Origin: Frankiaceae bacterium
GTDB taxonomy: Bacteria; Actinomycetota; Actinomycetes; Mycobacteriales; SCTD01
Assembly: GCA_031424715.1 (NCBI GenBank)
Contig: JANPHZ010000158.1
Coordinates: 1-46,217 of the forward strand
Length of the DNA stretch: 46,217 nt
Direction: 5' to 3'
Shown here piece by piece: positions 13,804 to 30,680 of this stretch. A program made the translations under genes and the position numbers. The first letter of the stretch is position 1, and every line of letters starts with the position of its first letter. Below the pieces are notes generated by a model, which saw only the letters and a list, made by a program, of their open reading frames with translations, did no database searches and was not told where the DNA came from.

Positions 13804-15041
13804 GGCGCGGACCGGTCGTCTGGACCCTGCTTTTCCTGCTCGTGGGACTCGGGGCGGCGTTGGCGCTGCTCGTGCCGTGGTCGGTGCTGCCAGGCGCTGA
13901 TCTGCGCGGCGCGATCGGGACCGACTTCACCCCCGGGGAGCTCGCGCGCGAGGAGGCGTTCCACCGGGAGGTGCGCCCCCCGTCGTACGCCGGACTCGTG
14001 CTAGGCCTCGCCGTCAGTGCCGTGCTGGGCCTGACGCCGCTCGGCGGTCGCCTGGTGCGGCGCGTGTCGCCCCGGTGGTGGCCCGCGCAGGTCGTGTGCG
14101 GGACGCTCGCGCTCGTCGGACTCGGGCGTCTGGTGACCCTGCCGCTTGACGCCATGATCGAACGCGGGCTGCGCCGCTACGGGCTCTCCACGCAGACCTG
14201 GGGTGGCTGGCTGCTCGACGTCTGCCGCCAGGTCCTGGTCGCCTCCGCGCTGACGGCGCTGGTGCTCCTGGCGGCGCTGCTTCTCGTGCGGATCGCGCCG
14301 CGCACCTGGTGGGCCTGGGCGGCGGGGACTACGGCGGCGCTGGTCGTCGCCGGTTCGTTCGCCTATCCGGTCCTGATCGAGCCGGTCTTTAACGACTTCC
14401 GGCCGCTGCCCGCCGGCTCGCAGCGCACGGCGCTGCTCGCCCTCGCCGACCGGGACGGGGTGCCCGTGCAGGACGTCCTGGTCGCCGACGCCTCCCGTCG
14501 TACGACCTCGCTCAACGCCTATGTGAGCGGCTTCGGCTCGACCCGCCGGATCGTCGTCTACGACACGCTGCTGCGTACGGCGACACCGCGTGAGGTCGAG
14601 CTGGTCGTCGCCCACGAGCTGGGGCACGCGGACGAGGACGACGTGCTCGTCGGCACGCTGCTTGGGGCGGGAGGTGCCGCCGCCGGTGTCTGCGTCCTGG
14701 CCCTGCTGGTGTCGAGTGCGCGGGTGCGCCGCCGCTGTGGAGCTGACTCTGTCGGCGACCCAAGACTCATTCCGCTGCTGCTGTTCGTCAGCGCGGCGGG
14801 GATGCTCCTGCTGCTCCCGGTGACGAACGCCGTGTCCCGGCAGGTGGAGGCGCGGGCCGACCTGCACTCGCTGGAGCTGACGGAGGATCCGCAGACGTTC
14901 ATCGCGACCGAGCAGCGGCTGGCGCGCACCAACCTCGGTGACCTTCGACCAGATCCGGTGCTCCACGCCATCTTCGCCAGCCACCCCTCGGTCGTGCGGC
15001 GCATCGCCATGGCCCGCGAGTGGGACCGGTTGCGCCGGTGA
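13800..15041 (+). CDS. M48 family (Ste24/HtpX-like) integral-membrane metalloprotease
   Basis: The track ORF 13452..15041 is over-extended. An in-frame GTG at 13800 overlaps the upstream stop (GTGA) and gives VRRGPVVWTLLFLLVGLGAALALLVPW. The protein has several TM segments and VVAHELGHADEDD. Confidence 0.8.
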   Translation: MRRGPVVWTLLFLLVGLGAALALLVPWSVLPGADLRGAIGTDFTPGELAREEAFHREVRPPSYAGLVLGLAVSAVLGLTPLGGRLVRRVSPRWWPAQVVCGTLALVGLGRLVTLPLDAMIERGLRRYGLSTQTWGGWLLDVCRQVLVASALTALVLLAALLLVRIAPRTWWAWAAGTTAALVVAGSFAYPVLIEPVFNDFRPLPAGSQRTALLALADRDGVPVQDVLVADASRRTTSLNAYVSGFGSTRRIVVYDTLLRTATPREVELVVAHELGHADEDDVLVGTLLGAGGAAAGVCVLALLVSSARVRRRCGADSVGDPRLIPLLLFVSAAGMLLLLPVTNAVSRQVEARADLHSLELTEDPQTFIATEQRLARTNLGDLRPDPVLHAIFASHPSVVRRIAMAREWDRLRR

Positions 15042-16138
15042 GGACGCTGGTGGTGACCAACGACTTCCCGCCGCGACCTGGCGGTATCCAGGCCTTCGTC
15101 CACGCGCTGGCATCGCGGCAGCCGGTGGACGAGGTGGTCGTGTTCGCGTCGAGCTGGCAGGGAGCGCCTGCCTTCGATGCGGCACAGGGGTTCCCCGTGG
15201 TCCGGCTGCATGGGTCGCTCATGCTGCCGACGCCGACGGTGCTTCGGCAGGCCCGGCAGATCGCCGCTGCCGAGGGCTGCGACCGGGTGTGGTTCGGGGC
15301 GGCAGCGCCACTGGGGTTGCTGGCACAACCCCTTGCCCTGCAGCGCTCCGTGGCTTCGACCCACGGTCACGAGGTCGGTTGGGCGATGCTGCCCGGAGCT
15401 CGGCAGCTGCTCGCAAGGATCGGTCGGGACACCGATGTCGTCACCTACCTGGGCGACTACACCCGCCAGCGACTCGCCCCGGTCCTGCCTCGGCTCGAGC
15501 GGCTCCCCTCCGGGGTCGACACCGAGCTGTTCCGGCCCGGCGCGGGCGGCGAGCAGGTCCGGGCGCGACACGGCCTGACCGGACGCCGCGTCGTCGTCTC
15601 GGTATCGCGGCTGGTCGAGCGCAAGGGGCACGACGTGCTCATCCGGGCCCTCCCGGAGATTCGACGACGGGTGCCCGACACCGCGCTGCTCATCGTCGGG
15701 GGCGGTCCCTACCGCCAGCAGCTGGAGCGGCTGGCGCGCGAGGCCGGGGTGAGTGAGCACGTGGTCCTCACCGGGTCGGTGCCGTGGGCTGAGCTGCCGG
15801 CTCACTACGACGCCGGCGAGGTCTTTGCGATGCCGTGCCGCACCCGCCGCGGGGGTCTGGAGGTCGAGGGCCTGGGCATCGTCTTCCTCGAGGCCTCGGC
15901 AACCGGAATCCCTGTGGTGGCAGGACGTTCTGGTGGCTCGCCAGACGCCGTCCTGGAGGGGGAGACGGGCCACGTCGTCGATGGGACCAGTGTCGGTGCG
16001 GTGGCTGATGCGGTGGCCGGCCTGCTGGCCGATCCCGAGCGGGCGCGACGGATGGGCCAGGCGGGTCGCGCGTGGGTGGAGCGCGAGTGGCGCTGGGACG
16101 TGCTGGCCCAGCGGCTCAGAGCGCTGCTCGCCGGTTAG
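15038..16138 (+). CDS. GT4 family glycosyltransferase, PimB-like mannosyltransferase
   Basis: VRTLVVTNDFPPRPGGIQAFVHAL at the N-terminus, and EGLGIVFLEASATGIPVVAGRSGGSPDAV (the E-x7-E region). The GTG at 15038 overlaps the M48 stop (GTGA); the track start at 15020 is also possible. Confidence 0.85.
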   Translation: MRTLVVTNDFPPRPGGIQAFVHALASRQPVDEVVVFASSWQGAPAFDAAQGFPVVRLHGSLMLPTPTVLRQARQIAAAEGCDRVWFGAAAPLGLLAQPLALQRSVASTHGHEVGWAMLPGARQLLARIGRDTDVVTYLGDYTRQRLAPVLPRLERLPSGVDTELFRPGAGGEQVRARHGLTGRRVVVSVSRLVERKGHDVLIRALPEIRRRVPDTALLIVGGGPYRQQLERLAREAGVSEHVVLTGSVPWAELPAHYDAGEVFAMPCRTRRGGLEVEGLGIVFLEASATGIPVVAGRSGGSPDAVLEGETGHVVDGTSVGAVADAVAGLLADPERARRMGQAGRAWVEREWRWDVLAQRLRALLAG

Positions 16139-17637
16139 CCCGCGGCGACGACGTGCACGATGCGCGCGCGGGTGTGCGGTTCGTCGTACGCCTTGAGGCT
16201 CTTGCGGATCGACAGCGCTGACAGGCCGCAGATCGGGAGCCCGAGGACGAGCGGCACGGTCCAGTCGCCTGCACTGGTGGACGCTCCCAGGGTCATGCCG
16301 ATGAGCGCCGTCGCCCCGGCGAGCCGCACGCTCGCGGCGACGAGCGCGCCCGGCGGGGTGACCGCGTCGCGCGGTGCCCGCAGGTCAGCGCGGTGCGGGT
16401 GGTGGACCGACAGACGCAGGCACAGAGCGATGACGACGGCGGTGCAGGTCACGGCGGAGACGACGACCGCGGTGAGCTCGGCGGCTGTCGGGGGAGCCGG
16501 GGCGCGCACGGCGCCGGCGATGGCGGCCAGCAGCACCGCGCCCGTGATCGTCTCGGCGAGGACGATGACCTTGGCCCGCGCCAGCAGTCGTGGCGGGTGT
16601 GGCAGCGACGCCAGCCACACCGCCCCGGACCCATCGAGGCAGAAGGCGTTGATGCCGAAGAGCAGGCCCGCGCCGGCGGCGACGAGACCGGGGAGGGCGG
16701 CCAGGGACTTCCAGGGCACGGCAGCGCCCGCAGCGGCGATGCCCGGCAGGATCGCGAGGACCAGCGCGCCGCGCCGCAGGGGGGCGGCGCGCCAGACGCT
16801 GGCGCGGTCCATGGCGACCAGGGCTCGCAGCGGCGAGGAGGCTGGGTCGCGCCGGCGTACGGCCCGGTCTTCCCCGATGGGGGTGGCGTCCAGGGGGCGG
16901 CGCAGGGCCCAGTCGCAGGCATGTCGGCCCAACACGAGCGAGGCCAGCGCGACGGCGCAGAGCGCCGCGGTCACCTGCCACCAGGCCGCGTCGGAGGGGC
17001 TCGACGAGCCGACCGCTCGGACCACCATGGGAGCCGGGCTGAGGTCGAGGATCCGCTGGCCCTGCTCGAAGCGGAAGGCGGTGATGGCCCCGAGGGCTGC
17101 GACGGCGACGGTGCAGCGCACCAGCAGCCGACCGCGCTTGGACTGGCGCAGCCCGACGACGAACCAGGCGAGGGCCTGGCCCCCCGCCGTACACGCGGCC
17201 ACGTAAGCAGCTGTCGTCGCGGCGCCCCGAGCGGGTGAGCCGTCGCCCAGGGTGAGGTAGGTCGTCTCGGCGGTGAGCACTACCAGCTGCAGCACCCACA
17301 CGAGGTTGAGCGGGGCGAGCACGAGCGAACCGAGGAACTGCGTCGCCGGCCGTACCGGATAGGCGACGAGCTGCGACGCGGGCATCACCTCGCTGCCACC
17401 ACCGGCCGTCAGCGGCGCGATGATCGCCAGCAGGCCGAAGCCGAGGTAGGACGGGGCGGCTGCGCTCAGCGCAGCGGTGAGGGCGTCGGGATCGATCCGG
17501 CCGGGGCTCGCGATGGCTGCGGCCAGCAGCAGCGCGACGAGCACCGGCGCCAGGAGCAGGACCGCCTGTGTGCGGCGGGAGCGCATCATCTGCCAGCGCA
17601 GCCGCAGCAGAGCCCTCAGCTGACGGGTCGGGCTCAT
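16135..17637 (-). CDS. Polytopic membrane protein, probable permease partner of the upstream ABC ATPase
   Basis: 500 aa with many hydrophobic segments. 4-nt overlap with the stop of the ATPase gene. No family motif recognised. Confidence 0.6.
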   Translation of the reverse strand: MSPTRQLRALLRLRWQMMRSRRTQAVLLLAPVLVALLLAAAIASPGRIDPDALTAALSAAAPSYLGFGLLAIIAPLTAGGGSEVMPASQLVAYPVRPATQFLGSLVLAPLNLVWVLQLVVLTAETTYLTLGDGSPARGAATTAAYVAACTAGGQALAWFVVGLRQSKRGRLLVRCTVAVAALGAITAFRFEQGQRILDLSPAPMVVRAVGSSSPSDAAWWQVTAALCAVALASLVLGRHACDWALRRPLDATPIGEDRAVRRRDPASSPLRALVAMDRASVWRAAPLRRGALVLAILPGIAAAGAAVPWKSLAALPGLVAAGAGLLFGINAFCLDGSGAVWLASLPHPPRLLARAKVIVLAETITGAVLLAAIAGAVRAPAPPTAAELTAVVVSAVTCTAVVIALCLRLSVHHPHRADLRAPRDAVTPPGALVAASVRLAGATALIGMTLGASTSAGDWTVPLVLGLPICGLSALSIRKSLKAYDEPHTRARIVHVVAAG

Positions 17638-18382: not shown

Positions 18383-19498
18383 TCAGCGACGTCGGCCGAA
18401 CCTTCCGACCTGGTCGGGCGGGTCCAGAGGGCCGGGAGCGGCGACCTCCTTCGGGTAGAGGGAGACCAGCCTGGCCTGCTCGTAGTCGATTGTGCCGTCG
18501 GCCACCAGATCGCTGAGTGCGCTCTCCAAGGTCTGCATTCCCTCGGACTGGTGCGTGCTCACGACGTTGCGCAGCTGGTTGGTCTTGCCCTCCTTGATGA
18601 GGTTGCGGACCGCCGAGTTGGCCACGAGCACCTCGTACGCCGCGACCAGACCGCCGGCGGCACGCGGCAGCAGTCGCTGGTAGACGATGCCGGTCAAGGC
18701 GTTGGCGAGCTGCACCCGGATCTGAGACTGCCGGTCCGAGGGGAAGACGTCGACGATGCGGTCCAGGGCCTGGGCGGTGTCGTTGGTGTGCAGGGTGGCG
18801 AGCACGAGGTGGCCGGTCTCGGCCAGGGTCAAGGCGAACGAGATCGACTCCAGGTCGCGCATCTCGCCGACGAGCAGGACGTCCGGGTCCTCGCGCAGCG
18901 CCGACCGGAGCGCCGCGGGAAAGCTCGCTGTGTCCTCTCCGACCTCCCGCTGGTGCACGACCGCCTTGCGGTTGGCGTAGACGTACTCGATGGGGTCCTC
19001 GACGGTGATGATGTGGCAGGCCCGCTCGGCGTTGATCCGATCGATCACCGAGGCGAGGGTGGTGCTCTTGCCGGCTCCCGTCGGGCCGGTCACCAGGATG
19101 AGCCCCTGGCGTAGGCCGGCGAAGCGCTCGAAGACCTCCGGCAGGCCCAGATCCTCGTAGGTCGGAATCTCATGGGGGATGAGGCGCAGGGCGATCGCGG
19201 TCTGCCCCTTGGTGCGGAAGGCGTTGCCGCGCAGGCGGGCACTGCTGCGCCAGGTGAACGAGAAGTCCACCTCCGCACCGCCGTCGAAGGCCGCTCGCTG
19301 TTGCGGCAGCAGGAGCTGGTGCAGCAGGTCCTCGGTGTCGGACGCACTCAGTGGTCCGTAGCCCTCGAGCGGACCCAGATTGCCGTCGACGCGCACCATC
19401 GGGGTCGCCTCGGGCGAGATCAGCAGGTCGGTGCCCTTGCTGTCCCAGAGCTGGGACAGCAGGTCGTCAGCCTGCAGGAGGGGGAGAGGCTTGGCCAT
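18383..19498 (-). CDS. pilT: Type IV pilus retraction ATPase PilT
   Basis: Walker A GPTGAGKSTTLA, Asp box and Walker B region DPDVLLVGEMRD, His box TGHLVLATLHTND. The start is taken at MAKPLPLLQ (Met15 of track ORF 18383..19540). Confidence 0.9.
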   Translation of the reverse strand: MAKPLPLLQADDLLSQLWDSKGTDLLISPEATPMVRVDGNLGPLEGYGPLSASDTEDLLHQLLLPQQRAAFDGGAEVDFSFTWRSSARLRGNAFRTKGQTAIALRLIPHEIPTYEDLGLPEVFERFAGLRQGLILVTGPTGAGKSTTLASVIDRINAERACHIITVEDPIEYVYANRKAVVHQREVGEDTASFPAALRSALREDPDVLLVGEMRDLESISFALTLAETGHLVLATLHTNDTAQALDRIVDVFPSDRQSQIRVQLANALTGIVYQRLLPRAAGGLVAAYEVLVANSAVRNLIKEGKTNQLRNVVSTHQSEGMQTLESALSDLVADGTIDYEQARLVSLYPKEVAAPGPLDPPDQVGRFGRRR

Positions 19499-19581
19499 GG
19501 CTCGACGGTACGAACGAGGACGCGCTCGTACATCGTCCAAACGGTCAGGCTTGGCGGCGCGAACTGACTAACGTCTTCGAC

Positions 19582-20319
19582 GTGCCTCCTCCGACTCGTC
19601 GCCGCGGCGGGGGTCCGGACCTGCCGTACCGCCTGATTGCGGGGGTGGAGCCGTGTCCGAAGGGTTGGCTCGTCGTCGGCGCCCGACTGCAGGGGGTCAC
19701 GGCCTTCCCGACGGAACCGGAGGTCTTCCCGACCTTCGCCGGGATCTTGGACTACCGGCCGTCGTACGACGTGATCGCGATCCACTGCCACCTGTCCTTC
19801 CCGGAGGACGACACCCCGGGCGGGCGGACCTGTGATCGGGAGGCCCGCAAGCTGCTCGGATTCGCGCGTGGCGGAGCGATCAAGTCGCCGCCCTCCCGGC
19901 ACTACCTGCGGACCCAGGATCTCGACGCGCGGGCGCAGAAGGGCCTGGATCCGATCAGCGCCCGGATGATGCGGCGCTACGCCGAGGTCGCCGAGGAGAT
20001 GCAGCCCTACCGGCAGCGGCAGGTGTTCGAGGTGCACCCGGAGCTGTCCTTCTACCAGCTCAACGACGACCAGCCGATGCAGCACTCCAAGCACACCGAG
20101 GAGGGCATTCTCGAGCGGCGCCGCCTTGTCGAGACGCGGATCCCCGGGGTTGACGTGGTCCTGGACGCGCAGCTGCCGGGTGGGGTCACCGCCCGGCACC
20201 TGCTGGATGCGACGGCAGACTTGGTGACGGCCCGGCGCATCGCTGCCCGGGCCGTCGACCGGCTCCCTGAAGATCCTGAGTGGGATGAGCAGGGAGTCCG
20301 GATGGAGCTGCTCCGCTAG
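19582..20319 (+). CDS. DUF429 (RNase H-fold, predicted nuclease) family protein
   Basis: Part of track ORF 19351..20319. An in-frame GTG at 19582 gives VPPPTRRRGGGPDLPYRLIAGVEPCPKGWLVVGA..., and RTCDREARKLLGFARGGAIKSPPSRHYL resembles the DUF429 core. The start is uncertain. Confidence 0.65.
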   Translation: MPPPTRRRGGGPDLPYRLIAGVEPCPKGWLVVGARLQGVTAFPTEPEVFPTFAGILDYRPSYDVIAIHCHLSFPEDDTPGGRTCDREARKLLGFARGGAIKSPPSRHYLRTQDLDARAQKGLDPISARMMRRYAEVAEEMQPYRQRQVFEVHPELSFYQLNDDQPMQHSKHTEEGILERRRLVETRIPGVDVVLDAQLPGGVTARHLLDATADLVTARRIAARAVDRLPEDPEWDEQGVRMELLR

Positions 20320-20321
20320 TT

Positions 20322-20347
20322 GGCGCGCACGGTCAGGTGCACGCGCC
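20322..20347. terminator. GC hairpin (ggcgcgcac-ggtcag-gtgcacgcgcc) between the convergent DUF429 and pilin genes, overlapping the pilin stop codon; possible bidirectional terminator
   Basis: Imperfect inverted repeat read directly. Only 13 nt separate the two stop codons. Confidence 0.4.
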
Positions 20348-20686
20348 TGTCGCCGTGACCACCCCGCTGGCGTAGGTGATGAGGTACCCCTCAGTGGCCA
20401 CCGTCGCTGTCGGGAAGGTCTTCAGCGTGGCATTTGCGCCGGTGGTGAGATCGGATGACGTCGCGGCATAGGTGCCGACCTTCGCTTTGTAGGCCTCTGC
20501 GGCCGTCACAACGGTCTTCTTGTCGGCCTTGCACGCGCTGGCCTTGCTGTCGCTCGTTGCACTACCCACGGCAAAGACGACGATCCCGGCGAGGATGCCA
20601 AGGATGACGATGACGATGAGTAGTTCGATGAGGGTGAAGCCATCCTGACGGCCGGCGTCGAGCCGGGTCCGAAGCCGGTCGTTCAT
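20333..20686 (-). CDS. pilA: Type IV (major) pilin with prepilin N-terminal cleavage/methylation motif
   Basis: The start is at Met23 of track ORF 20333..20752, with GAAGGAGACCTC before the ATG. MNDRLRTRLDAGRQDG|FTLIELLIVIVILGILAGIVVFAV is a classic G|FTLIE class III signal. 117 aa, with a Cys pair (ACKAD ... GACT) near the C-terminus. Confidence 0.85.
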   Translation of the reverse strand: MNDRLRTRLDAGRQDGFTLIELLIVIVILGILAGIVVFAVGSATSDSKASACKADKKTVVTAAEAYKAKVGTYAATSSDLTTGANATLKTFPTATVATEGYLITYASGVVTATGACT

Positions 20687-20817
20687 GAGGTCTCCTTCGT
20701 GGGTGGGGTGTGCTCCTGTTAAGAACTGTGCTGCTGCGCCGGGCGGTGTCACATCGGACGATCGGTCGGGCCGATCGGACCTTCGGTCAGTTCCGGTAGT
20801 CCCTCTGGACTAGTGCG

Positions 20818-22314
20818 CTACTGGCTGCGCCAGCTCTTGACGTCGATGCTGTAGGGCGCGTAGTTGCTGACCGTGGCGACGGACCGCTGTCGAGCGGTGG
20901 TGCCGCTACTTGCGTCTGTCGCCTCGACGAGGACAGTGCGGAAGGGTGGGGGCGGCGTGCCTGCACCTGACGACGCGGAGATGGCCAGGGCATCGCTGCC
21001 GACGGCCGATGCCTTCAGTTCCAGTGAGTGCGCCACTACCCCGCCCCGCGCGGCGGCCACGGTGCCGTTGGTCGAGAACACCTCGACGTCGCCATTCGGC
21101 GCGAAGATCTTCGCGTTGACCTGCATGGCGCTGTTGTTGCCTCCTCCGGTCAGCAGCGGGGCTCCGACGACCTGCGCCGCGTACGAGGAGTCCGTGTAGG
21201 AGGAAGCGCCCACGATGTTGACGGGGACTGATGAGCCGCCTGTCGGTGGGCTGAAGAGGGTCACCGCCCCCTTGCGCACGTCCAGTCGAGCGTTGCTGCC
21301 GAAGACCCACGTGACCCCGTATGCGAAGCGGTACGGGGCGACGCTCCCGAGCAGGGGCAGCACTGCTGCCTGGGACATGGCCTTGGCGTCGTCCATACCC
21401 ATCGCGCTGCAAGCGTTCGCAGGAACGGTCGTGTCTGTCGTCGCGGAGCGCTGCCCTCCAATGACCTCGATGTTGGCGTCGTCGATGACCCACGGAGCGG
21501 CAGCGAAGTAGTACAAGCCGCTGACGAAGTAGTTCTTGCTGTTGTTGGTGAGCAAGGGCGGTGCGGCGTACCGTCCGGGGTAGTAGACGCGGCACTGGTT
21601 GGAGCCAGACGTCACCAGCGTGCCGCCGGTCAACACCGCAGGCAGGGCTGATGCGACAGGCGGTGCGCTGGGCAGGACCACCACGGGCAGGCTCTGAGTC
21701 AGTGTCTGCTCGGTGCAGGAGCGGAGCTGCCCCGTCCCGATCAGACGGACCTTCGTCAGCGCATCGAGCCCGGCTTGACAATTCGGACCGTTCGGCCGGA
21801 CCAGGTCTCCCTCGGTGATCTCGACGGGCTTGCCGACGTCCCCGTTGTCCACCGCGCCGTTCAGGAAGACTGAGCCGCCCACCTGTAGGTCCTGTGAGGT
21901 GCCAGACTGCGTGCGGAAGGCACCGTCGGAGGAGCTCGTGACGACGACGGCGTAGTTGCGGGCGGCGGCCTCGCCGGTCAGGGCTGCGCGGCCCGCAAGC
22001 GTGCTGCACGTCCAGGCGGCCGTCGTGCCGTTAGCGGTCAGCGTGCCGCTGCCGCTGCCGCTCGTTGGGCTGGTGCAACTGGTCGGCATACCCGACGCCA
22101 TCTCCGAACGGAGCTGCTGGAGTGCCCTGTCGACGCCGCCGTCCAGGGCGTACTGGACCTGGGTCCGGTCGCGGACCTGTCCGCCTACCAGAGTCGTCGA
22201 AGCGTTCTTGTCCAAGGCCACCGTCGCGAAGAGGCCGACCACGACAAGGAAGACGAGCGCGAGGACGAGCGCCACGCCTTCCTCGCCGTGCATCCGGTTC
22301 CATCGCCGTCTCAT
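20818..22314 (-). CDS. Large PilX-N-like pilus-associated protein (candidate tip/adhesin or minor pilin-like component)
   Basis: The track ORF 20818..22680 is over-extended. Met123 at 22314 overlaps the upstream stop (ATGA) and gives MRRRWNRMHGEEGVALVLALVFLVVVGLFATVALDKNASTTLVGG, a PilX/TadG-like N-terminus. The remaining ~450 aa are Thr/Ser/Gly/Ala/Val-rich. Confidence 0.6.
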   Translation of the reverse strand: MRRRWNRMHGEEGVALVLALVFLVVVGLFATVALDKNASTTLVGGQVRDRTQVQYALDGGVDRALQQLRSEMASGMPTSCTSPTSGSGSGTLTANGTTAAWTCSTLAGRAALTGEAAARNYAVVVTSSSDGAFRTQSGTSQDLQVGGSVFLNGAVDNGDVGKPVEITEGDLVRPNGPNCQAGLDALTKVRLIGTGQLRSCTEQTLTQSLPVVVLPSAPPVASALPAVLTGGTLVTSGSNQCRVYYPGRYAAPPLLTNNSKNYFVSGLYYFAAAPWVIDDANIEVIGGQRSATTDTTVPANACSAMGMDDAKAMSQAAVLPLLGSVAPYRFAYGVTWVFGSNARLDVRKGAVTLFSPPTGGSSVPVNIVGASSYTDSSYAAQVVGAPLLTGGGNNSAMQVNAKIFAPNGDVEVFSTNGTVAAARGGVVAHSLELKASAVGSDALAISASSGAGTPPPPFRTVLVEATDASSGTTARQRSVATVSNYAPYSIDVKSWRSQ

Positions 22315-22907
22315 CCGAGTCGCCCCCGAAGGCAGCCGCTGTACGAGTACCCCTGGGTGCCGATGTCCTGGGCGTAGCTCGGCAGCGTCACCGACAGTCG
22401 CCCGGCAGGGCAGTCCGCCGCAGTGGTCGTCGTCACGGTCACGGGCGTCGCCGAGCCGAGGTTGCGCAGCAGCAGGGAGTCGTCCGCCGCGCCGGTCGGG
22501 GGACACAGCCGCCGTACGAGCTGGTACCGGGTGCCGCCACCCACGGGGATGACGGGGTCGGGCGTCACGACGTAGGAGGAGCGCCAGGTGCCAGCTCCTG
22601 GCACGGGTGTGGGATCGGTCGGTGTCGCGGTCCACTCGGTCCAGCTCATGGTCATTACGGCCGTGCCCGCGCCCGAGCAAGGCGTGGAGGCGGTGCTCGG
22701 GGCCCCATCCGAACTGGCAAGGTCACGGTTGAGGTAGCTGCTCAGCACGACAGCTCCGCCGGTGTGGTCGTCCCGCTCGATCGTGTACGTGCCGTTCTTC
22801 AGAAAGGTGATGAGCGCTCCTGTGATGGCGCCCATGATGATCGTGAGGATGGCCGCAGACAGCAGCAGTTCGACCAGGGTGAAGCCGTCCTCGTCACGCT
22901 GTCTCAC
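22311..22907 (-). CDS. Prepilin-type minor pilin-like protein
   Basis: An in-frame GTG at 22907 overlaps the upstream stop (GTGA). VRQRDEDG|FTLVELLLSAAILTIIMGAITGAL carries the G|FTLxE motif. About 198 aa. Confidence 0.75.
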   Translation of the reverse strand: MRQRDEDGFTLVELLLSAAILTIIMGAITGALITFLKNGTYTIERDDHTGGAVVLSSYLNRDLASSDGAPSTASTPCSGAGTAVMTMSWTEWTATPTDPTPVPGAGTWRSSYVVTPDPVIPVGGGTRYQLVRRLCPPTGAADDSLLLRNLGSATPVTVTTTTAADCPAGRLSVTLPSYAQDIGTQGYSYSGCLRGRLG

Positions 22908-23287
22908 GGCCGCTTCACCACGGTCACAGAGAGCGCGAAGCCATTCCCCGTGACCTTGACGGGGACCCCGACCAGTTGTGCGCACGGCTGACTGTCGACG
23001 GCCACCGCGGGGTCGAAGGTGACCGCGTAGGCAGCGCTGCGCGGGACTTCGGTCAGCGTTGGCGGGGCCAAGACGACTCCGCAGGCAGGTGTTCCGGACA
23101 AGCCCTTGACGAACTCAGCAGCAGAGGCGAGGACGCTCTCGGCCTGCGCCTGCTCGCGGTTGATGCTCGTCGTCGTCACGTTCGTCACCAGAGCACCCGT
23201 CAAGGCGACGATGCCGATGCCGAGGACGGCCAGGGCTACGAGAATCTCGACGAGCGTGTCGCCGGCTTCTCCTTGCGGCCGGGGCAT
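22904..23287 (-). CDS. Prepilin-like minor pilin (atypical +1 residue)
   Basis: Met109 of track ORF 22904..23611, 1 nt after the pilC stop. MPRPQGEAG|DTLVEILVALAVLGIGIVALTGAL has Glu at +5 but Asp instead of Phe at +1. 127 aa with two Cys. Confidence 0.65.
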   Translation of the reverse strand: MPRPQGEAGDTLVEILVALAVLGIGIVALTGALVTNVTTTSINREQAQAESVLASAAEFVKGLSGTPACGVVLAPPTLTEVPRSAAYAVTFDPAVAVDSQPCAQLVGVPVKVTGNGFALSVTVVKRP

Positions 23288-23288
23288 G

Positions 23289-24425
23289 TCAGATCGACCT
23301 GCTGCTGTTGAAGATGCCGTACATCGCGGACACCAGCGCCACCGCCACAAAACCAACGACCAGGCCCATGACGATGATGATCGCCGGCTCGAACAGGTTG
23401 GTGAAGCGCTTGATCTTGTAGTCGAGCTCACGCTCGAAGTAGCCGGCGGCCGTCTCGAGCTGGTGGTCCAGGGTCCCCGTCGACTCGCCGACGCGGAACA
23501 TCTGCTTGGCCGAGGGTGGGAAGAGCCCGCTCTCGTTGAGCGGAGTGGCCAGGCCCTCACCCCGGAGCATCCGTTCGCGGACCTCCACCAGCCCGCGGCG
23601 GTAGACGGCATTGCTGGTCGCCGCCGAGGTCACCCGCATGGCCTCGGGCAGGGGGACGCCAGCCTGCATCATGCTGCTCAGGATCCGGCAGAAGCGCTCG
23701 AGCACGACGTGCTGGACCATGTCGCCGACGACCGGTAGGCGCAGCAGAACGCGGTCTCGCAGGGTCTTGCCGGTGTCGGTCCGCATCGCGGCCACGATCA
23801 GGATCACCACCACGAGCAGAGCCGCCACGATGTACAGGCCGTTGTCGCTGAGGAAGGCCGAGAACGAGAGCATGATGCGTGTGGGAAGGGGCAGTTCAGC
23901 GCCCAGGTCTGCGAAGAAGACCTCGAACTTGGGCAACACGACGGTCGTGAGGATGATGACCACCACAACGCCGAGCGCCATGATGACCGCTGGATAGGTC
24001 AGGGCCGACGTGATCTTCCGGCGCGCATCCACGTCGCGCTCGATGTAGTCCGAGAGCTGCACGAGCACGGTGTCAAGCTGACCGGTCAACTCCGCCGACC
24101 GCAGGATGCCTAGGTAGTAGGGCGGGAACGCGGAGGAGTGTTGCCCTGCGGCGTCGGCAAGGGTTGAGCCGGACCGCAGCGACTCGACGATGTCCTCGAC
24201 GATGGACCGAAAGTACTTGTTGCCCATCTCCTCATGGATTGCCTCGAGCGCGTCCAGGATCGGGATGCCTGCCTTGATAAAGACCGCGAGCTGACGGCTG
24301 AAGTGCATGAGGTCCTTGCGAGGAACCTTTTTAGAGGTCAGCTCGAACTGCAGGATCGACTTCTTCGGCCCCTTTGCCGTCGCGTCCACCTTGCCGGTAA
24401 CGCTCAGCTGATCGATGACGCTCAT
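23289..24425 (-). CDS. pilC: Type IV pilus platform protein PilC (T2SS F family)
   Basis: 378 aa with the two-fold T2SSF-like organisation (HFSRQLAVFIKAGIPILDALE and RFCRILSSMMQAGVPLPEAM) and 3 TM segments. Confidence 0.9.
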   Translation of the reverse strand: MSVIDQLSVTGKVDATAKGPKKSILQFELTSKKVPRKDLMHFSRQLAVFIKAGIPILDALEAIHEEMGNKYFRSIVEDIVESLRSGSTLADAAGQHSSAFPPYYLGILRSAELTGQLDTVLVQLSDYIERDVDARRKITSALTYPAVIMALGVVVVIILTTVVLPKFEVFFADLGAELPLPTRIMLSFSAFLSDNGLYIVAALLVVVILIVAAMRTDTGKTLRDRVLLRLPVVGDMVQHVVLERFCRILSSMMQAGVPLPEAMRVTSAATSNAVYRRGLVEVRERMLRGEGLATPLNESGLFPPSAKQMFRVGESTGTLDHQLETAAGYFERELDYKIKRFTNLFEPAIIIVMGLVVGFVAVALVSAMYGIFNSSRSI

Positions 24426-24432
24426 AAGAACC

Positions 24433-26283
24433 TCATGCCGAGTAGATGTGTCGGATGACTTCGGGGATGGTCGTGAGGTTCTGCTCGACCAGAGCGATCG
24501 CCTCGTCGTTCAGCGTGCGCATGCCCTGCTTGACGGCCATGCGGCGCAGCTCGTCCTGGGTGGCCCAGCCGACAACGAGACGCTTGATCTCCGGCGTGAT
24601 CGTCAGCAGCTCGTAGACGCCGATGCGGTCGGAGAAGCCGGTGTTGCTGCAGAAGTTGCAGCCCATGCCCTTGTAGAACTTGGCCTTGGTCGCTCCGCCG
24701 GACTCCTCGTAGAAGGCCATCTCCTCGGGGGAGGGCTTGTAGAGCTTCAGGCACTTCTCGCAGTTGCGCCGCAGCAGGCGTTGCCCGACGACGCCGAGCA
24801 CCGAGGAGGCGATGAGAAAGCTCTCGATGCCCATGTCGAGGAAGCGGTGCAGGGCCGCCACGGCAGCGGTCGCGTGCAGCGACGACAGGACGAAGTGCCC
24901 GGTCAGCGCTGACTGCGTCGCGATCCGGGCGGTCTCGACGTCGCGGATCTCACCGACCAGGATCACGTCCGGGTCCTGCCGCAGGATCGACTTCAGGCCG
25001 GTGGCGAAGGTGAGGCCGGCCTGCTCGTTGGTCGAGATCTGGTTGATCGAGGGGAAGACGTACTCGACCGGGTCCTCGATCGTCATGATGTTGCTCTGCG
25101 ACTCGTTGATCTCGCTCATCGTCGCGTAGAGCGTGGTCGTCTTCCCGGAGCCGGTCGGGCCGGCGCAGAGCACCATGCCGAACGGCGCGTGTACCAGCTT
25201 GGAGAACGTCGCGTGCGTGTCCGGTGGCATGCCCAGCTCGCCGAGCTTGAAGAGCGGGCGGCTCTTGTCCAGGATGCGGAGCACGACCTTCTCTCCCCAG
25301 ATCACCCCGGTGCTGGCCACGCGGATGTCGACCGACCGGCCGTCGACGTCGATCGCGATCTGACCGTCCTGCGGACGGCGCCGCTCGACGATGTTCATCC
25401 CCGCCATGATCTTGAGTCGGCTCACGAGCGCGGGGCCCATGCTCACCGGCAGGGAAACGACGTCGTGCAGTGCTCCGTCGATCCGGAAGCGGATGCGTAG
25501 CCGGGTGTCCTGCGGCTCGAGGTGCACGTCGGAGGCCCGGTCACGAAGAGCCTGACTGATGATCTTGTTCACCACTTGCACGACGGGCGCGTCGTGCGCT
25601 GCCGAGTCAGACGTGAGGGTGACCGACGTTCTGGTGATGGTCGCTGCCTCGAACGCGGCCACGAAAGCGTCCAGCCCCTCGAGCGACCGGTAGCACAGGT
25701 CGATGGCCCGGCGCACCTCGCTGGCGGGGGCCACGGCCAAGGTGACCGCCAGTCCCGTCACAGCCCCGAGCTGCTCGAGCAGAGCCTGGGACGGGTCAGC
25801 GACGGCGACGACCACACTGTCGCCCCTGCGCAGCATGGGGATGCACTGCTCAGCACGGGCCAGCGCCTCGGGCACGAGGGCGATGGCATCGGGCTCGGGC
25901 GTCTGGGTGCTGAGGTCCACGACGGACAGCGAGAGCTGGGCAGCCAGCGCCTCGGCGAGGTGCTGCTCGGTGATCGCTCCCAGCTCTACCAGCTGAGCCC
26001 CTACCCGCCTGCCCGAGATGCTCTGCTGAGCCAAGGCCTCGTTGAGCCGATCCGGGTCGATGAGCTCATGCGCCAGCAGGATCTGGCCCAAGGGCCACCA
26101 TGTGCTAGCGGCATCTCCGCCGGCCGACGCACCACGGCTCGTCTTCGCGGACCTCTGTCGAGGGGTAGGGGGCACTGCAGCCTTGACGTGCCTCGGCCCG
26201 GCTGCGGGGCTGCTCTCCGCCACGAGGACCGACGAGCCCTGGGCCTCAGACGGAGCCCCCGCGGTCGTGCGTCGGAGCTTCAT
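24433..26283 (-). CDS. pilB: Type IV pilus assembly ATPase PilB (GspE/PulE family)
   Basis: The start is at Met72 of track ORF 24433..26496 (GGAGAGGTCCAC before the ATG). It has a T2SSE_N-like region, Walker A GPTGSGKTTTLYA, DPDVILVGEIRD, TGHFVLSSLHAT and a tetracysteine CEKC ... CNFC. Confidence 0.9.
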   Translation of the reverse strand: MKLRRTTAGAPSEAQGSSVLVAESSPAAGPRHVKAAVPPTPRQRSAKTSRGASAGGDAASTWWPLGQILLAHELIDPDRLNEALAQQSISGRRVGAQLVELGAITEQHLAEALAAQLSLSVVDLSTQTPEPDAIALVPEALARAEQCIPMLRRGDSVVVAVADPSQALLEQLGAVTGLAVTLAVAPASEVRRAIDLCYRSLEGLDAFVAAFEAATITRTSVTLTSDSAAHDAPVVQVVNKIISQALRDRASDVHLEPQDTRLRIRFRIDGALHDVVSLPVSMGPALVSRLKIMAGMNIVERRRPQDGQIAIDVDGRSVDIRVASTGVIWGEKVVLRILDKSRPLFKLGELGMPPDTHATFSKLVHAPFGMVLCAGPTGSGKTTTLYATMSEINESQSNIMTIEDPVEYVFPSINQISTNEQAGLTFATGLKSILRQDPDVILVGEIRDVETARIATQSALTGHFVLSSLHATAAVAALHRFLDMGIESFLIASSVLGVVGQRLLRRNCEKCLKLYKPSPEEMAFYEESGGATKAKFYKGMGCNFCSNTGFSDRIGVYELLTITPEIKRLVVGWATQDELRRMAVKQGMRTLNDEAIALVEQNLTTIPEVIRHIYSA

Positions 26284-26420
26284 GTGGACCTCTCCAGCCA
26301 CTGGATCATCGCGACGCAGAGCACACCGGCGAGCAGCACGACGAGGAGAACGAGAGCAAGCTCCTGCACCCTGAGTTGGATCCCGAAGAGCCGGAACCCG
26401 CTGGTTCGTCTCGCCGCCAC
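26280..26420 (-). CDS. Unannotated 46-codon single-pass membrane ORF translationally coupled to pilB
   Basis: Own translation: VAARRTSGFRLFGIQLRVQELALVLLVVLLAGVLCVAMIQWLERST*. The GTG at 26420 is preceded by GGAGG with a 6-nt spacer. The TGA stop overlaps the pilB ATG (ATGA). Third codon positions are mostly G/C. It is below the size cutoff of the ORF track. Confidence 0.4.
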   Translation of the reverse strand: MAARRTSGFRLFGIQLRVQELALVLLVVLLAGVLCVAMIQWLERST

Positions 26421-26549
26421 CAGGCACCTCCGTCCACGGGGCCGTGCGTGGCGCCCCGCTCACCGTCGCTGCTGACCGGGGCTGGGGCCATCGCACGGTG
26501 GGCCGGAAGAGTTGACCGTTTGGAGGAGGGACAGAAGGGCTGCTTCGTG

Positions 26550-27179
26550 CTAGCCGACGTCGACGAGGCCGAGGCGAACGGCGGCCATGATGGCTTGCGT
26601 GCGGTTGTCGGCGCCGAGCTTCTCGTACACCTTGGACAGGTGCGTCTTGGTTGTCGACTGGCTGATGAACAGCTGTTCCGAGACCTGAGCGACCGAGGCG
26701 CCACCTGCCAGGAGGTCCAGGATTTGCTGCTCACGCGGCGTCAGGTGGACCGTGGGAGTCTGCAGTCGTCGCCGCATCGCACCGGCGAGGTCATGCGCCG
26801 TAAACGTCAACGGCGATGCGGCGGCATGTCGCGCTCCGGCAATCACGTCGCCGGAGGGTGCCGACTTGAGCACGAAGGCCGAGGCACCTGCTTCCAGCGC
26901 CGCGAAGACGTGCTCGTCGGCGTCGTACATGGTGAGGACGACGAGACCCATCTGCGGCCGCCGAGAACGGAGCTCGCGCACGAGGTCGATCCCGCTGCCG
27001 TCGCCGAGGTTGATGTCGACGACGGCGACATCAGGCTCGTGCGCCCGTGCGAGCGCTCGGGCCTCGGAGGCGCTCGCGGCTTCGGCCACCACCGCCAAGT
27101 CATCAGTCTGGTCGAAGGCCTGGCGCAGCCCCTGCCGGATCAGGCTGTGGTCGTCGACCAGCAGCACGGTGATGCTCAT
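26550..27179 (-). CDS. NarL/FixJ (LuxR-type HTH) response regulator
   Basis: 209 aa. Receiver MSITVLLVDDHSLIRQGL ... PDVAVVDINLGDGSG, and C-terminal HTH LTPREQQILDLLAGGASVAQVSEQLFISQSTTKTHLSKVYEKLG. Confidence 0.9.
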   Translation of the reverse strand: MSITVLLVDDHSLIRQGLRQAFDQTDDLAVVAEAASASEARALARAHEPDVAVVDINLGDGSGIDLVRELRSRRPQMGLVVLTMYDADEHVFAALEAGASAFVLKSAPSGDVIAGARHAAASPLTFTAHDLAGAMRRRLQTPTVHLTPREQQILDLLAGGASVAQVSEQLFISQSTTKTHLSKVYEKLGADNRTQAIMAAVRLGLVDVG

Positions 27180-28822
27180 GAGCTCCGCCCCTCCTTGCTC
27201 GAGCCGAACACCACATCTACCCGCACGCCACCACCTTCGCGCAGCGAAACGGTCAAGGCTCCTCCCACCTGCCGGAGGCGTGCATCCAGCTCGTCGACCT
27301 CGAGCGACTCTGGGCTGCCGCTGGCGGCGTCGTGCTCGACGGTGAGCCGCGCGGACGGCGGGTCGACGGCCAGTGCCACCCAGAGGTTGCCGCTACGTGC
27401 GTGGAGCCGGTAGTGCTGGGCGACCGCCTGCAGTGCTTGGAAGAGCAGGACCTCGCTGTCAGCGGGCAGCCTGAAGGCTGCCTCGTCAAGGGACAGATGA
27501 ACGGCCAGCCCGGTCCCTGAGCCCATGGCCCGCAGGTAGGACGCGATCGCAGCGCCCAGGCCACCTTCCTGGTCGACACTTGTGCGGAGCTCGGTGATCG
27601 ACAGGCGGATCGAGCTGATGAGACCGGTGAGGTCCCGGCGCACCTCGGCGACGCTGGAGGCCAGTGCGGGGTCAGTAGTCCGGGCCTGCGTGACCAGCTC
27701 GTCGAGCCGGTAGCCGAAACTGGCGAGGTCCTGCGCCAGGCCGTCGTGGATCTGGCGGGCCAGTCGGTTGCGCTCCTCCAGGGTGAGGCTGCGGCGCACG
27801 TCATCGAACAGCAGCGCCGTCTCGATCCGCAGCGCCCCCGCTGCAGCACAGTCCACCAGCCCGTCGATGACCTGCGTGCTGAACGTCGCCGGCTCGTACA
27901 CCTCGAGGGCGAGCAGTCCGAAGGGCGCGCTGGCTGTCACGAGCGGGATGACCGCGAGGGTGCTGCCCAGTCGTCGTCCGTGCACGTCGGGGGGGCGTAC
28001 GTCGACGACCGGAGCGCAACTGTCCCAGCTCTGCCGAAGCGGTCCCGGAGACGCCAGAGGCGCCCGCCACGGCATGCGGCTCGTCCCGCGGACGGCCGCG
28101 GGCACGAGCGACCCGGTACCGGTCTCCACCAGCACGGCCGAGCGGTCGCTGGGCGCGATGAGCGCCGCCTTGTCGAGGACGGCCATGGCCGCCGCCGGCA
28201 GGTCCAAGCCGCCGGTCAGTCCCTCGGTCACACCGCGCAGCTGCCTCAAGAGGGCGCGCGCCTCGCCGTACCGGTCGCTGTCCGCCGCAGGAGGGGGGTT
28301 CAGGCTGAGTCTGCGTGACCAGTTGGCGCTCAGGCCGAGGGCGAGGCCGAGGACGACCCAGAGCGAAACGGTGGCGGTGAACGCCTCGGCTGTGCCGGAC
28401 GGCACCCCGGGAAGACCCCACGCGTAGGCGAGCCGTCCCATGGCGGCACCCGCGGCGCAACCGGCACTCGCCAGCAGGACGTCGACGCGGGCGCCGGTGA
28501 GGCCCATGGCCACGCCCGGGGCGAGCAGGTAGGGGAGCATCGGGCTCCGTGGTCCGCCCGTGAGGCAGACGGCGGCCCCGGCGATCACCGCCTCGACGAC
28601 AGTGATCGGCAGGACGTGGCGGCGCTCGCGCTCGGCGCGATTCGCGACCAGGACGAGGGCCGCGAGCAGTGCCGTCGGTAGCGCGGTGTAGCTGCGGAAC
28701 TCAGCGAACAGGGCTGTGACGCTGCACAGCACGAGCAGGGCAAGGCGGATCGCTGTCGCTGGAGACGAGTTGTGCCGTGGCTGTCGCCGCCGGCCGGTGA
28801 CCGCCGCCTGCCCGTCGGTCAT
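27176..28822 (-). CDS. Membrane sensor histidine kinase (TM region + GAF-like domain + HisKA_3 + HATPase)
   Basis: Phospho-acceptor box RLARQIHDGLAQDLAS (HisKA_3 type). ATGA overlap with the regulator. I prefer the Met26 start (MTDGQAAV, 28822), because the track start at 28897 would overlap the fadD 3' end by 29 nt. Confidence 0.8.
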   Translation of the reverse strand: MTDGQAAVTGRRRQPRHNSSPATAIRLALLVLCSVTALFAEFRSYTALPTALLAALVLVANRAERERRHVLPITVVEAVIAGAAVCLTGGPRSPMLPYLLAPGVAMGLTGARVDVLLASAGCAAGAAMGRLAYAWGLPGVPSGTAEAFTATVSLWVVLGLALGLSANWSRRLSLNPPPAADSDRYGEARALLRQLRGVTEGLTGGLDLPAAAMAVLDKAALIAPSDRSAVLVETGTGSLVPAAVRGTSRMPWRAPLASPGPLRQSWDSCAPVVDVRPPDVHGRRLGSTLAVIPLVTASAPFGLLALEVYEPATFSTQVIDGLVDCAAAGALRIETALLFDDVRRSLTLEERNRLARQIHDGLAQDLASFGYRLDELVTQARTTDPALASSVAEVRRDLTGLISSIRLSITELRTSVDQEGGLGAAIASYLRAMGSGTGLAVHLSLDEAAFRLPADSEVLLFQALQAVAQHYRLHARSGNLWVALAVDPPSARLTVEHDAASGSPESLEVDELDARLRQVGGALTVSLREGGGVRVDVVFGSSKEGRSS

Positions 28823-28868
28823 CTCGCGCCGGCCACCGAGTCCACGCGCCGCGGCACCGTCAACCCAA

Positions 28869-30680
28869 TCAAGAACCCTGCGCGGCGTAGAGGGCATCGA
28901 CCTCGGCCGCGAACTCCTTCATGACCACGGCGCGCTTGAGCTTGAGCGACGGGGTGAGCTGGCCGCCCTCCTCGGTCCAGTCCTGCTCGAGGACCGCGAA
29001 CTTCTTGATGGCCTCCGCCTGGGACACGGCCTTGTTGGCCTCGTCCACGGCGCCCTGGACCTCGGCGAGCAGATCCTCGTCGGTGGCCAGGTCAGCGGGT
29101 GTTCCGGACTTCCCGCGGGCGGTCGACCAGGCCTGCGCGGCCTCGGGGTCGAGGGTGACGAGCGCGGCGATGAAGGGCTGCTTGTCGCCGACAACCATGC
29201 ACTGGCTCACCAGGGGATGCGCGCGCAGCCGGTCCTCCAGCACCGCGGGGGCGACGTTCTTGCCGCCTGCGGTGACGATGAGCTCCTTCTTGCGACCGGT
29301 GATGGTCAGGAAGCCCTCGTCGTCGAGCTGGCCGATGTCGCCGCTGTGGAACCAGCCGTCGCCCTTGGTCTCGCGGGTCGCGTCCTCGTTGTGCCAGTAG
29401 CCACGGAAGACGTGCTCGCCCTGCATGAGGACTTCGCCGTCGTCGGCGATGCGCACCGTGACGCCCGGCGAGGGGCGCCCCACGGAGCCGATCTTGAGGT
29501 GGGCGGGCGTGTTGACGGTGCCCGCCGCTGTCGTCTCGGTGAGCCCGTAGCCCTCGAGGATCGTGATGCCGATGCCGCGGAAGAAGTGCCCGAGCCGCGC
29601 TCCGAGGGGGGCTCCACCGGACACAGCCCACTCCACCTGTCCGCCTAGGGCCGCGCGCAGCTTGCCGTAGACCAGCCGGTCGAACAGGCCGTGCTGCAGT
29701 CGCAGCGCCAGTGGGACGCCGCCGCGAGCCACGGCCTCGCTGTAGCGGATGGCGACCCGCTCGGACGCATCGAAGATCTTGCCCTTGCCGTCGGCGTGAG
29801 CCTTCTGTCGGGCGGTGTTGTAGATCTTCTCGAACACGCGGGGGACCGACAGCACGAACGTCGGCTGGAAGACCGCGAAGTCGGCGAGCAGGTTCTTGAT
29901 GTCAGCGGTGTGGCCCATCCGCGCGCCGGTCTCCACGCAGCCGATCTGGATCAACCGGGCAAAGACGTGGGCCAGCGGGAGGAAGAGCAACGTCGAGCCT
30001 TGCGCGAGGAACAGCTCCTTGAGCACGAGACCCGCGCTCCGCCCGGTGCCGACGAGGTTGCCGTGCGTTAGCTCGCAGCCCTTGGGTCGCCCCGTCGTGC
30101 CCGACGTGTAGATGATCGTCGCGAGCGAGTCTGCGTTCAGCGTGGCCCGGCGCTCCGCGAGCGCCGTCGCGGGCACGTCGCGACCGGCCGCGGCCAGCCC
30201 CTCGACGTCGCCGGTGTCCATGCGCCACACGTGCTTGACCCCGGGCAGGTCGGCCCGCAGCCCCGCCACGATCGCCTCGTGGGCGGTGCTCTCGACGATG
30301 ACCGCGACGGCACCCGAGTCGCTGAGGTTCCACTGCACCTGCTCGGCGGACGACGTCTCGTAGATCGGCACGGTCACGGCGCCGGCCGTCCAGATCGCGT
30401 AGTCGCAGAGCGTCCACTCGTAGCGGGTCTTGCTCATCAGCCCGACCCGGTCACCGGCCTGTACGCCGGAAGCGATCAGGCCCGAGGCGACCGCGGCGAC
30501 CTCGTCGGCGAACTCGCGGGCCGTCACGGGGGCCCAGCCCGCGTCGGAGCGCCGGCTGAAGGCGACCGCGTCCGGCGTACGGCTTGCGTTGTCGTGCACG
30601 GCGTCGAGCAGGCAGGCCTGCGGGGACGCGGTGAGCACTTGGGGGGTGGAGTACTCGTTCAACACCGGCTCCTCGTTCAT
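28869..30680 (-). CDS. fadD: Long-chain fatty-acid--CoA ligase (AMP-dependent synthetase, FadD15-like)
   Basis: 603 aa. AMP-binding motif IIYTSGTTGRPKG, then EGYGLTET and GWFHSGDIG ... GRKKELIVTAGGKNV. Confidence 0.9.
   Translation of the reverse strand: MNEEPVLNEYSTPQVLTASPQACLLDAVHDNASRTPDAVAFSRRSDAGWAPVTAREFADEVAAVASGLIASGVQAGDRVGLMSKTRYEWTLCDYAIWTAGAVTVPIYETSSAEQVQWNLSDSGAVAVIVESTAHEAIVAGLRADLPGVKHVWRMDTGDVEGLAAAGRDVPATALAERRATLNADSLATIIYTSGTTGRPKGCELTHGNLVGTGRSAGLVLKELFLAQGSTLLFLPLAHVFARLIQIGCVETGARMGHTADIKNLLADFAVFQPTFVLSVPRVFEKIYNTARQKAHADGKGKIFDASERVAIRYSEAVARGGVPLALRLQHGLFDRLVYGKLRAALGGQVEWAVSGGAPLGARLGHFFRGIGITILEGYGLTETTAAGTVNTPAHLKIGSVGRPSPGVTVRIADDGEVLMQGEHVFRGYWHNEDATRETKGDGWFHSGDIGQLDDEGFLTITGRKKELIVTAGGKNVAPAVLEDRLRAHPLVSQCMVVGDKQPFIAALVTLDPEAAQAWSTARGKSGTPADLATDEDLLAEVQGAVDEANKAVSQAEAIKKFAVLEQDWTEEGGQLTPSLKLKRAVVMKEFAAEVDALYAAQGS

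Follow-up and report, generated by a model that had tools for sequence, protein, structure and literature searches.

A probable retractile type IV pilus locus in a Frankiaceae bacterium and its link to a DUF429 gene

The contig JANPHZ010000158.1 of a Frankiaceae bacterium, an uncultured actinobacterium from soil, contains a compact cluster of pil genes that probably specifies a functional type IV pilus capable of retraction, a kind common in Actinomycetota. This contig, a single NCBI sequence of 46,217 bp, is hereinafter referred to as the window, and all absences stated below cover its entire length. Because the cluster combines homologs of the motor and platform proteins PilB, PilC and PilT with pilins that carry class III signal peptides, and includes no secretin, a monoderm retractile pilus appears to be the right reading of its gene content; a preliminary description, made from the sequence alone, had arrived at the same type IVa-like machinery and, as one of two readings, at a minimal monoderm pilus. 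Domain or family profiles match each of the core components, the genes are intact, and their identities and order are conserved in related loci. Copies identical to the locus are present in two further sequencing runs. The locus also includes a gene of the DUF429 family, and in actinobacterial pil operons this family shows a strong genomic link to the pilT gene.

All the pil genes lie on the minus strand. In the direction of transcription, from position 28897 to 18383, the order is a sensor kinase, a NarL/GerE-type response regulator, a 46-aa open reading frame (ORF), pilB, pilC, the genes for minor pilins of 127, 198 and 498 aa, pilA and pilT, which agrees with the one-strand order given in the preliminary description from the small ORF to pilT. 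Domain calls come from Pfam and NCBIfam profile scans of the window ORFs, and the cutoffs quoted are those of the respective profiles. The small ORF (26280-26420) has a GTG start, encodes one predicted transmembrane helix, and its stop codon overlaps the pilB ATG. It is followed by the genes for the extension ATPase PilB (24433-26283, 616 aa; T2SSE 406 bits, MshEN 63 bits), the platform protein PilC (23289-24425, 378 aa; T2SSF twice, 192 bits), the three minor pilins (22904-23287, 22311-22907 and 20818-22314, respectively), the major pilin PilA (20333-20686, 117 aa) and, finally, the retraction ATPase PilT (18383-19498, 371 aa). The gap between pilB and pilC is 7 nt and that between pilC and the 127-aa pilin gene is 1 nt, whereas the two subsequent junctions are a GTGA overlap (127-aa and 198-aa pilins) and an ATGA overlap (198-aa pilin and 498-aa protein). 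Thus, the coordinates yield gaps of 1-7 nt or 4-nt overlaps all the way from the small ORF to the 498-aa gene, and the tight junctions originally noted for the whole series hold over this stretch but not for pilA, which is separated from the 498-aa gene by a 131-nt spacer and has its own strong ribosome-binding site, GAAGGAGA, 6 nt upstream of the start. The distance of approximately 0.8 kb from pilA to pilT was also given correctly, but this interval is occupied by the DUF429 gene, which is encoded on the plus strand and had been missed.

Among the motor proteins, PilT scores above the curated PilT/PilU cutoff (TIGR01420, 432 vs. 319 bits) and matches solved PilT proteins at E ~1e-98; an AVRNLIKEGK motif and the Walker boxes are present in its sequence. 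PilB is matched over its full length by the PilB/PilF proteins of Geobacter, Myxococcus and Thermus (E ~1e-124 to 1e-128), and a Walker A motif GPTGSGKT and a CxxC...CxxC motif can be read in its sequence. PilC is a single platform protein with two T2SSF domains that matches Myxococcus PilC with an E-value of 1e-63. For PilB, the NCBIfam scores are nearly tied between the PilB family (TIGR02538, 533 bits) and GspE (524.6 bits), the best NCBIfam match of PilC is GspF, and the pilins show weak matches to GspG, GspI and GspK, all of which would fit a pseudopilus similar to that of the type II secretion system (T2SS), one that pushes proteins through the wall and forms no surface pilus. However, the GspE proteins in the PDB cover only the C-terminal part of PilB, its N-terminal domains being matched exclusively by PilB proteins, and no GspL, GspM, GspC or GspD is encoded in the window. 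PilT is characteristic of type IVa pili (T4aP) and is not a T2SS component, and because a dedicated PilT is present, we consider such a pseudopilus very unlikely. A T2SS proper was rejected on the same grounds, the lack of GspD and GspC/L/M in the window and the presence of PilT. An assignment to the Tad/Flp type (T4cP) was rejected as well, given the single PilC with two T2SSF domains, the N_methyl pilins, and the score of 36-44 bits with the TadA-family model. The features that distinguish T4aP are represented by the PilB-type ATPase, the single two-domain PilC and PilT, whereas PilM/N/O are missing.

The preliminary description regarded a pilus gene set with PilT as unusual for Actinobacteria, a view that is not borne out by the distribution of the relatives or by the literature. 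A PilB scan of a species-representative genome collection (one genome per species) yielded at least 593 relatives; the counts out of 80 given below refer to the best 80 of these, and labels such as L001 or L085 denote related pil loci that were compared. Among these best relatives, 71 of 80 are labeled Actinomycetota, including many Acidimicrobiia, metagenome-assembled genomes of Frankiaceae and Mycobacteriales, and Nanopelagicales, as well as Nocardioides, Amycolatopsis, Kribbella, Actinokineospora and Luedemannella. The pilT gene is found within the same locus in 46 of the 80, and a prepilin peptidase gene, confirmed by A24_N_bact and Peptidase_A24 matches, adjoins the cluster in 34. Comparison of the window proteins with the related loci, combined with clustering of all their ORFs, delineates a conserved core that consists of pilA, pilT, pilB, pilC, three minor pilin genes and pilD. 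This core occurs in three arrangements. Nocardioides, Amycolatopsis and similar genera have the order pilA-pilT-pilB-pilC-minor pilins-pilD, and the Acidimicrobiia have pilB-pilC-pilA-pilT-DUF429 and then pilD in convergent orientation; the third arrangement is the order seen in the window, which is common to L001, L081, L084 and L085. In these last loci the gene set is intact and syntenic, so that the pseudogenization in relatives that would speak against a functional pilus was not found. The PilB encoded in L001 is 84% identical to that of the window, and this locus also has in common with it a flanking fatty-acid CoA ligase and an ABC transporter.

It has been proposed that expression of T4aP is likely in every major monoderm phylum, Actinobacteria included, although the actinobacterial pili studied by then were of the Tad type (Pelicic, PMC6916266), and T4aP-type systems have been recorded in monoderm Actinobacteria (PMC6668835, PMC6916266). 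In Actinoplanes missouriensis, type IV pili have been seen on zoospores and are reported to be required for adhesion (PMC12871210, PMC8325347); the pil clusters of Rubrobacter, and probably those of several further families, are controlled by WhiG (PMC12871210, PMC8325347). The actinobacterial clusters of the Actinoplanes, Rubrobacter and Nocardioides/Amycolatopsis type include the same core families as the window, with 53-60% identical PilB and 60-67% identical PilT; the likeness to the Actinoplanes pili is drawn solely via the same-family Micromonosporaceae loci L038 and L054. The window differs from these clusters in gene order, in the extra N-terminal MshEN motif region of PilB that is missing in their PilBs, and in the lack of a WhiG/FliA-type promoter. 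Its PilB is more similar to the Acidimicrobiia versions (up to 74% identity) than to the proteins from Nocardioides and genera like it (53-60%). Several clusters of the Nocardioides/Pseudonocardiaceae type contain a gene for a ParA/MinD-like ATPase just upstream of pilA (L041, 8626-9522; L045, 8436-9218; also L046, L047 and L051), which recalls TadZ/CpaE of the Tad systems and is absent from the window. Among the experimentally studied monoderm T4aP, those of Streptococcus sanguinis and Clostridium spp. resemble the locus in the PilB/PilC/PilT motors, the pilins with class III signals and a T4a-like alpha1N helix, the presence of several minor pilins, one of them large and modular, the lack of a secretin, and the clustering of the genes. 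The differences are the absence of pilD from the cluster, the DUF429 gene linked to pilT, and the PilM/N/O proteins, which the studied Firmicutes systems contain and require (PMC6916266) and which are found neither here nor in the 80 related loci.

The N-terminal part of PilB might provide a further input. The MshEN receptor of cyclic di-GMP consists of two 24-residue motifs, RLGxx(LVI)(LVI)xxG(LVI)(LVI)xxxxLxxxLxxQ, separated by a 5-residue spacer (PMC5013675). The PilB N-terminus scores 57.8 bits with NF053729, a cyclic di-GMP motif domain, above the cutoff of 38, and contains two MshEN motifs of 24 residues each, set apart by the canonical spacer of 5 residues. In these respects, and in its canonical motif II, it resembles the MshE/PilF-type traffic ATPases that bind cyclic di-GMP, but motif I, which reads PLGQILLAHELI..., has P where R is expected and E instead of the conserved G and fails even the relaxed published motif at position 10. 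Because of this deviation, binding of cyclic di-GMP by PilB, and its control by this nucleotide, may occur but are uncertain. A strict regular expression for the tandem motif matched 10 of 66 PilB ORFs, and therefore the motif is not a general feature of these PilBs.

The pilin N-termini match the N-methylation model, as the preliminary description required. The N_methyl scores of 35 bits for PilA, 27.6 bits for the 198-aa pilin and 20.6 bits for the 127-aa pilin are consistent with class III signal peptides followed by a T4a-like alpha1N helix, and, as read from the sequence, the leaders carry G at -1 and E at +5, the latter missing in the 498-aa subunit. GspK also lacks E5. The leader of PilA, MNDRLRTRLDAGRQDG/FTLIE (the slash marks the predicted cleavage site), comprises 16 aa and leaves a mature protein of 101 aa with two Cys. 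Of the pilins with solved structures, Geobacter PilA-N, MshA and S. sanguinis PilE1 come closest, which are of the T4a or MSH type, and the PilA N-terminus additionally gives ComGC-like and GspG-like matches. The 127-aa pilin, with the leader ...EAG/DTLVE, matches PilV (E 4e-5) and GspI (E 1.7e-3); its N_methyl score is slightly below the cutoff of 21.2 bits, whereas the ortholog in L041 reaches 30.9. This pilin and its orthologs have D or E at +1 (G/DTLVE, G/ETLLE) rather than the usual F or M. The leader of the 198-aa pilin (...DEDG/FTLVE) is canonical.

The 498-aa protein, previously characterized as PilX-N-like, showed no PilX_N match in Pfam; it gave weak matches to the GspK N-terminus (E 4.8e-5) and to Tad (E 0.04) and can be placed in the broad GspK/PilX class of large minor pilins. 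A confident AlphaFold model built with 31 homologs (pLDDT 88.9) predicts a pilin helix at residues 12-74, followed by beta strands that make up a beta-rich body. A Foldseek search of this model against the PDB returned nothing significant, the best hit being a beta-helical ice-binding protein (E 8.7e-3), and a description of the protein as beta-helix-like would draw only on weak matches and secondary structure. It is likely to be a modular tip subunit and possibly an adhesin. Jointly, the three minor pilins seem to resemble an I/J/K set, the 127-aa protein being I-like, the 198-aa protein J-like and the 498-aa protein K-like. Orthologs of the three were detected in 27/80, 42/80 and 42/80 of the related loci, respectively. 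In L081, three tandem short pilin genes encoding 77-79 aa (11982-12929) take the place of the single pilA. Genes for GT87-family membrane glycosyltransferases are found inside some related clusters (L081, 7607-8734; L085, 12120-14539; L024, 16630-18156) and may be involved in the glycosylation of the pilins; the pil cluster of the window has no GT87 gene, and a GT4 gene is located at 15020-16138.

Several observations weigh against assigning the locus to a functional retractile pilus. Neither PilB nor PilC reaches its NCBIfam equivalog cutoff, although PilB and PilC (or GspF) are the best or near-best families, and the P and E substitutions in MshEN motif I of PilB depart from the consensus. 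Some parts are also missing. The absence of an A24/PilD peptidase, PilM/N/O and a secretin, noted in the preliminary description, was borne out over the whole contig by Pfam scans of all substantial ORFs, and a PilD profile built from relatives as well as tblastn against the six-frame translation of the contig detected nothing real. The peptidase gene is also absent from the closest syntenic relatives, and processing of the prepilins therefore would depend on a gene encoded elsewhere in the genome. PilM/N/O are listed as T4aP-specific and are essential in the studied T4aP systems (PMC6916266), yet they are missing in the window and in all related loci examined. They are absent from such clusters as a class, beyond the window contig, because clustering revealed no other family conserved among the 80 related loci, the leftovers being unrelated enzymes, GT87 glycosyltransferases and family-less proteins; for L081, L084 and L085, the precomputed Pfam annotation lists no PilM/N/O either.

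Without pilD and PilM/N/O on the contig, the cluster might be construed as an incomplete or non-functional remnant that produces no fiber, and the composition of the region could be cited in the same vein: the G+C content of the pil region is 0.66-0.69 (0.656-0.67 for the pil genes at 20000-26000), below that of the flanks at 0.72-0.75, in a window of high G+C sequence (0.65-0.76). The genes are all intact, however, with conserved catalytic motifs and cleavage sites, and the arrangement without pilD is maintained across relatives with 69-84% identical PilB, which indicates selection. Furthermore, systems that have no peptidase of their own and share one encoded elsewhere are known, the MSH system being an example (PMC6668835). 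We accordingly regard a remnant as very unlikely. Together with the Acidimicrobiia-like PilB, the lower G+C content of the pil genes may point to an old lateral transfer.

The gene between pilA and pilT encodes a 245-aa protein of the DUF429 family (19582-20319, plus strand; PF04250, 118 bits), with the start set from the orthologs. It converges on pilA (tail-to-tail) and diverges from pilT (head-to-head). The family falls within the RNase H-like superfamily, in a clade with RuvC and YqgF, and has been annotated only as a predicted nuclease with a conserved genomic context (PMC3985635); in the literature consulted on these pili and on DUF429, we found no earlier report of a link between the two. 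A DUF429 gene adjoins pilT or pilA in approximately 18 of the 80 PilB-derived loci; within the loci compared here, arrangements with DUF429 come only from uncultured organisms. In L011 (DUF429 at 15840-16559), L019 (6872-7594), L024 (14853-15575) and L052, the DUF429 start and the pilT stop overlap by 4 nt, and in L025, L017 and L084 (10001-10732) the gap between the two genes is 6-7 nt; translational coupling of DUF429 to pilT thus appears to be frequent. As a check for circularity, metagenomes were searched with the DUF429 alignment alone, and 80 loci were returned (L086-L165). Genes of the pil cluster are located beside DUF429 in 72 of these, and the 8 exceptions are contigs of at most 2.1 kb. 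Upstream sequence of 700 nt or more is available for 55 of the metagenome loci; in 30 of these a co-directional pilT lies directly upstream of DUF429, and in some others DUF429 is the last gene of an operon of pilT and minor pilins. A subfamily of DUF429 is, then, embedded in actinobacterial pil operons and strongly linked to them, especially to pilT.

The function of the DUF429 protein is less easily deduced from these associations. The residue before its conserved N-terminal PC..GW motif, which we take to be the usual first-strand acidic position of the family, is E, K, T or V among the orthologs. No signal peptide is evident in the sequence. The structure prediction is poor (pLDDT 60), and its Foldseek matches are meaningless and were set aside. 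Conceivably, and this we put forward as a tentative possibility, the loci represent a distinct PilT-powered type IV pilus sub-type of Actinomycetota that lacks PilM/N/O and in which the RNase-H-fold protein is integral to the machine. Within such a sub-type, DUF429 could be a cytoplasmic motor adaptor or a nucleic-acid-handling factor for DNA uptake.

A pilus devoted chiefly to DNA uptake, similar in function to ComG or to T4aP that serve competence, in which the short pilin fiber binds DNA, PilT pulls it in and DUF429 processes the nucleic acid, would account for a predicted nuclease-fold gene being embedded in the operon across lineages (PMC3985635). The major pilin is short (101 aa in the mature form) and has ComGC-like and GspG-like N-terminal matches, and PilM/N/O are missing, as they are in Com systems. 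Yet Pfam scans detected no ComEA, ComEC or ComF in the window, and the lack of an evident signal peptide in DUF429 does not favor a competence role, nor does the variation at the position before its GW motif, if this is indeed the acidic one. The comparison with the ComG pilus itself has the same two sides. Both are small machines without PilM/N/O that have a short major pilin and I/J/K-like minor pilins, but the ComGC score of PilA (37 bits) falls below the cutoff of 75, and the ComGA model (253 bits vs. a cutoff of 300) covers only the core of the window ATPase. ComGA is a short ATPase without N-terminal domains, and, to our knowledge, Com systems have no PilT, whereas the window encodes PilT and a full-length, 616-aa PilB with MshEN domains. 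Identity with a ComG pilus was rejected for this reason, and the suggestion in the preliminary description that the locus could be a ComG-like pseudopilus with an added retraction motor is borne out only for the lack of PilM/N/O and the short major pilin. Overall, a system that serves mainly for competence appears unlikely.

Returning to the retractile pilus, candidate regulators are encoded directly upstream. The two-component pair consists of a membrane sensor histidine kinase (27176-28897, minus strand; HisKA_3, 38.8 bits, with NarX/MctS-like NCBIfam matches) and a NarL/GerE-type response regulator (26550-27179, minus strand; Response_reg 87 bits, GerE 63 bits), the ATG of which overlaps the kinase stop codon (ATGA). 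The presence of this pair had been recognized before, but the GAF domain attributed to the kinase was not detected with Pfam at E<=0.1. Some orthologs do contain one, GAF_3 in L085 and a faint GAF_2 in L081. The order kinase-regulator-pilB is retained in L001, L002, L004, L066, L081 and L085, whereas in L084 a fatty-acid CoA ligase separates the pair from pilB; adjacency of the pair to pilB is confined to the window's own clade. The NarL/GerE-type regulator is probably a transcriptional regulator of the pil genes. No WhiG/FliA-type promoter (TAAA-N14-17-GCCGATAA, up to 2 mismatches) was found in the window, a scan for sigma-70 promoters returned 0 promoters, and terminators are at chance level. 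Short GTCCG-containing repeats occur upstream of pilA in the window (20690-20815, minus strand) and in L001 (16150-16320) and may be a regulator site; related CCGATCG repeats in the same region show no enrichment in the window, and none are shared with L001. The small ORF next to the regulator also has counterparts. In L001, L002, L004, L066 and L081, similar short hydrophobic reading frames terminate at the start of pilB, and the gene calls for L081, L084 and L085 include genes of 31-73 aa in this place. The 46-aa single-helix protein could be a membrane partner of PilB.

By analogy with homologous systems, the assembly, retraction, regulation and role of the pilus can be envisaged as follows. 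A prepilin peptidase, with its gene at another place in the genome, would cleave the four prepilins after the conserved Gly, and the three minor pilins, the I-like, the J-like and the large K-like one with its beta-rich body, would form a priming tip complex. The PilB hexamer then would drive PilC, so that the short PilA is polymerized through the cell wall. Replacement of PilB by PilT would depolymerize the fiber, and the resulting retraction could serve adhesion, surface movement or DNA uptake. Input control would probably be transcriptional, via the kinase and the NarL-type regulator, and perhaps also post-translational, via the MshEN-type N-terminal domain of PilB.

Two other regions of the contig deserve mention. 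A sortase gene adjoins genes for two large DUF4331 proteins, a TPR protein and a NicO-like membrane protein (2032-9435), which could comprise a separate surface-protein or metal-related cluster. At 41448-44108 on the minus strand, an 886-aa protein is encoded that contains an adenylate/guanylate cyclase domain followed by an NB-ARC (STAND) NTPase region; this gene is located in a stretch of lower G+C content (0.645).

PilT-bearing type IV pili already are known to be widespread in Actinobacteria, and as a pilus locus, the window adds little to this picture; it is largely an ordinary member of an already documented family. The consistent lack of PilM/N/O, which are considered essential for T4aP assembly, may be of modest interest to those who study pili, and these clusters could reveal how PilB, PilC and PilT operate with a smaller set of components. 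For DUF429, a family without a known function, the strong genomic link to pilT provides a concrete, testable functional lead.

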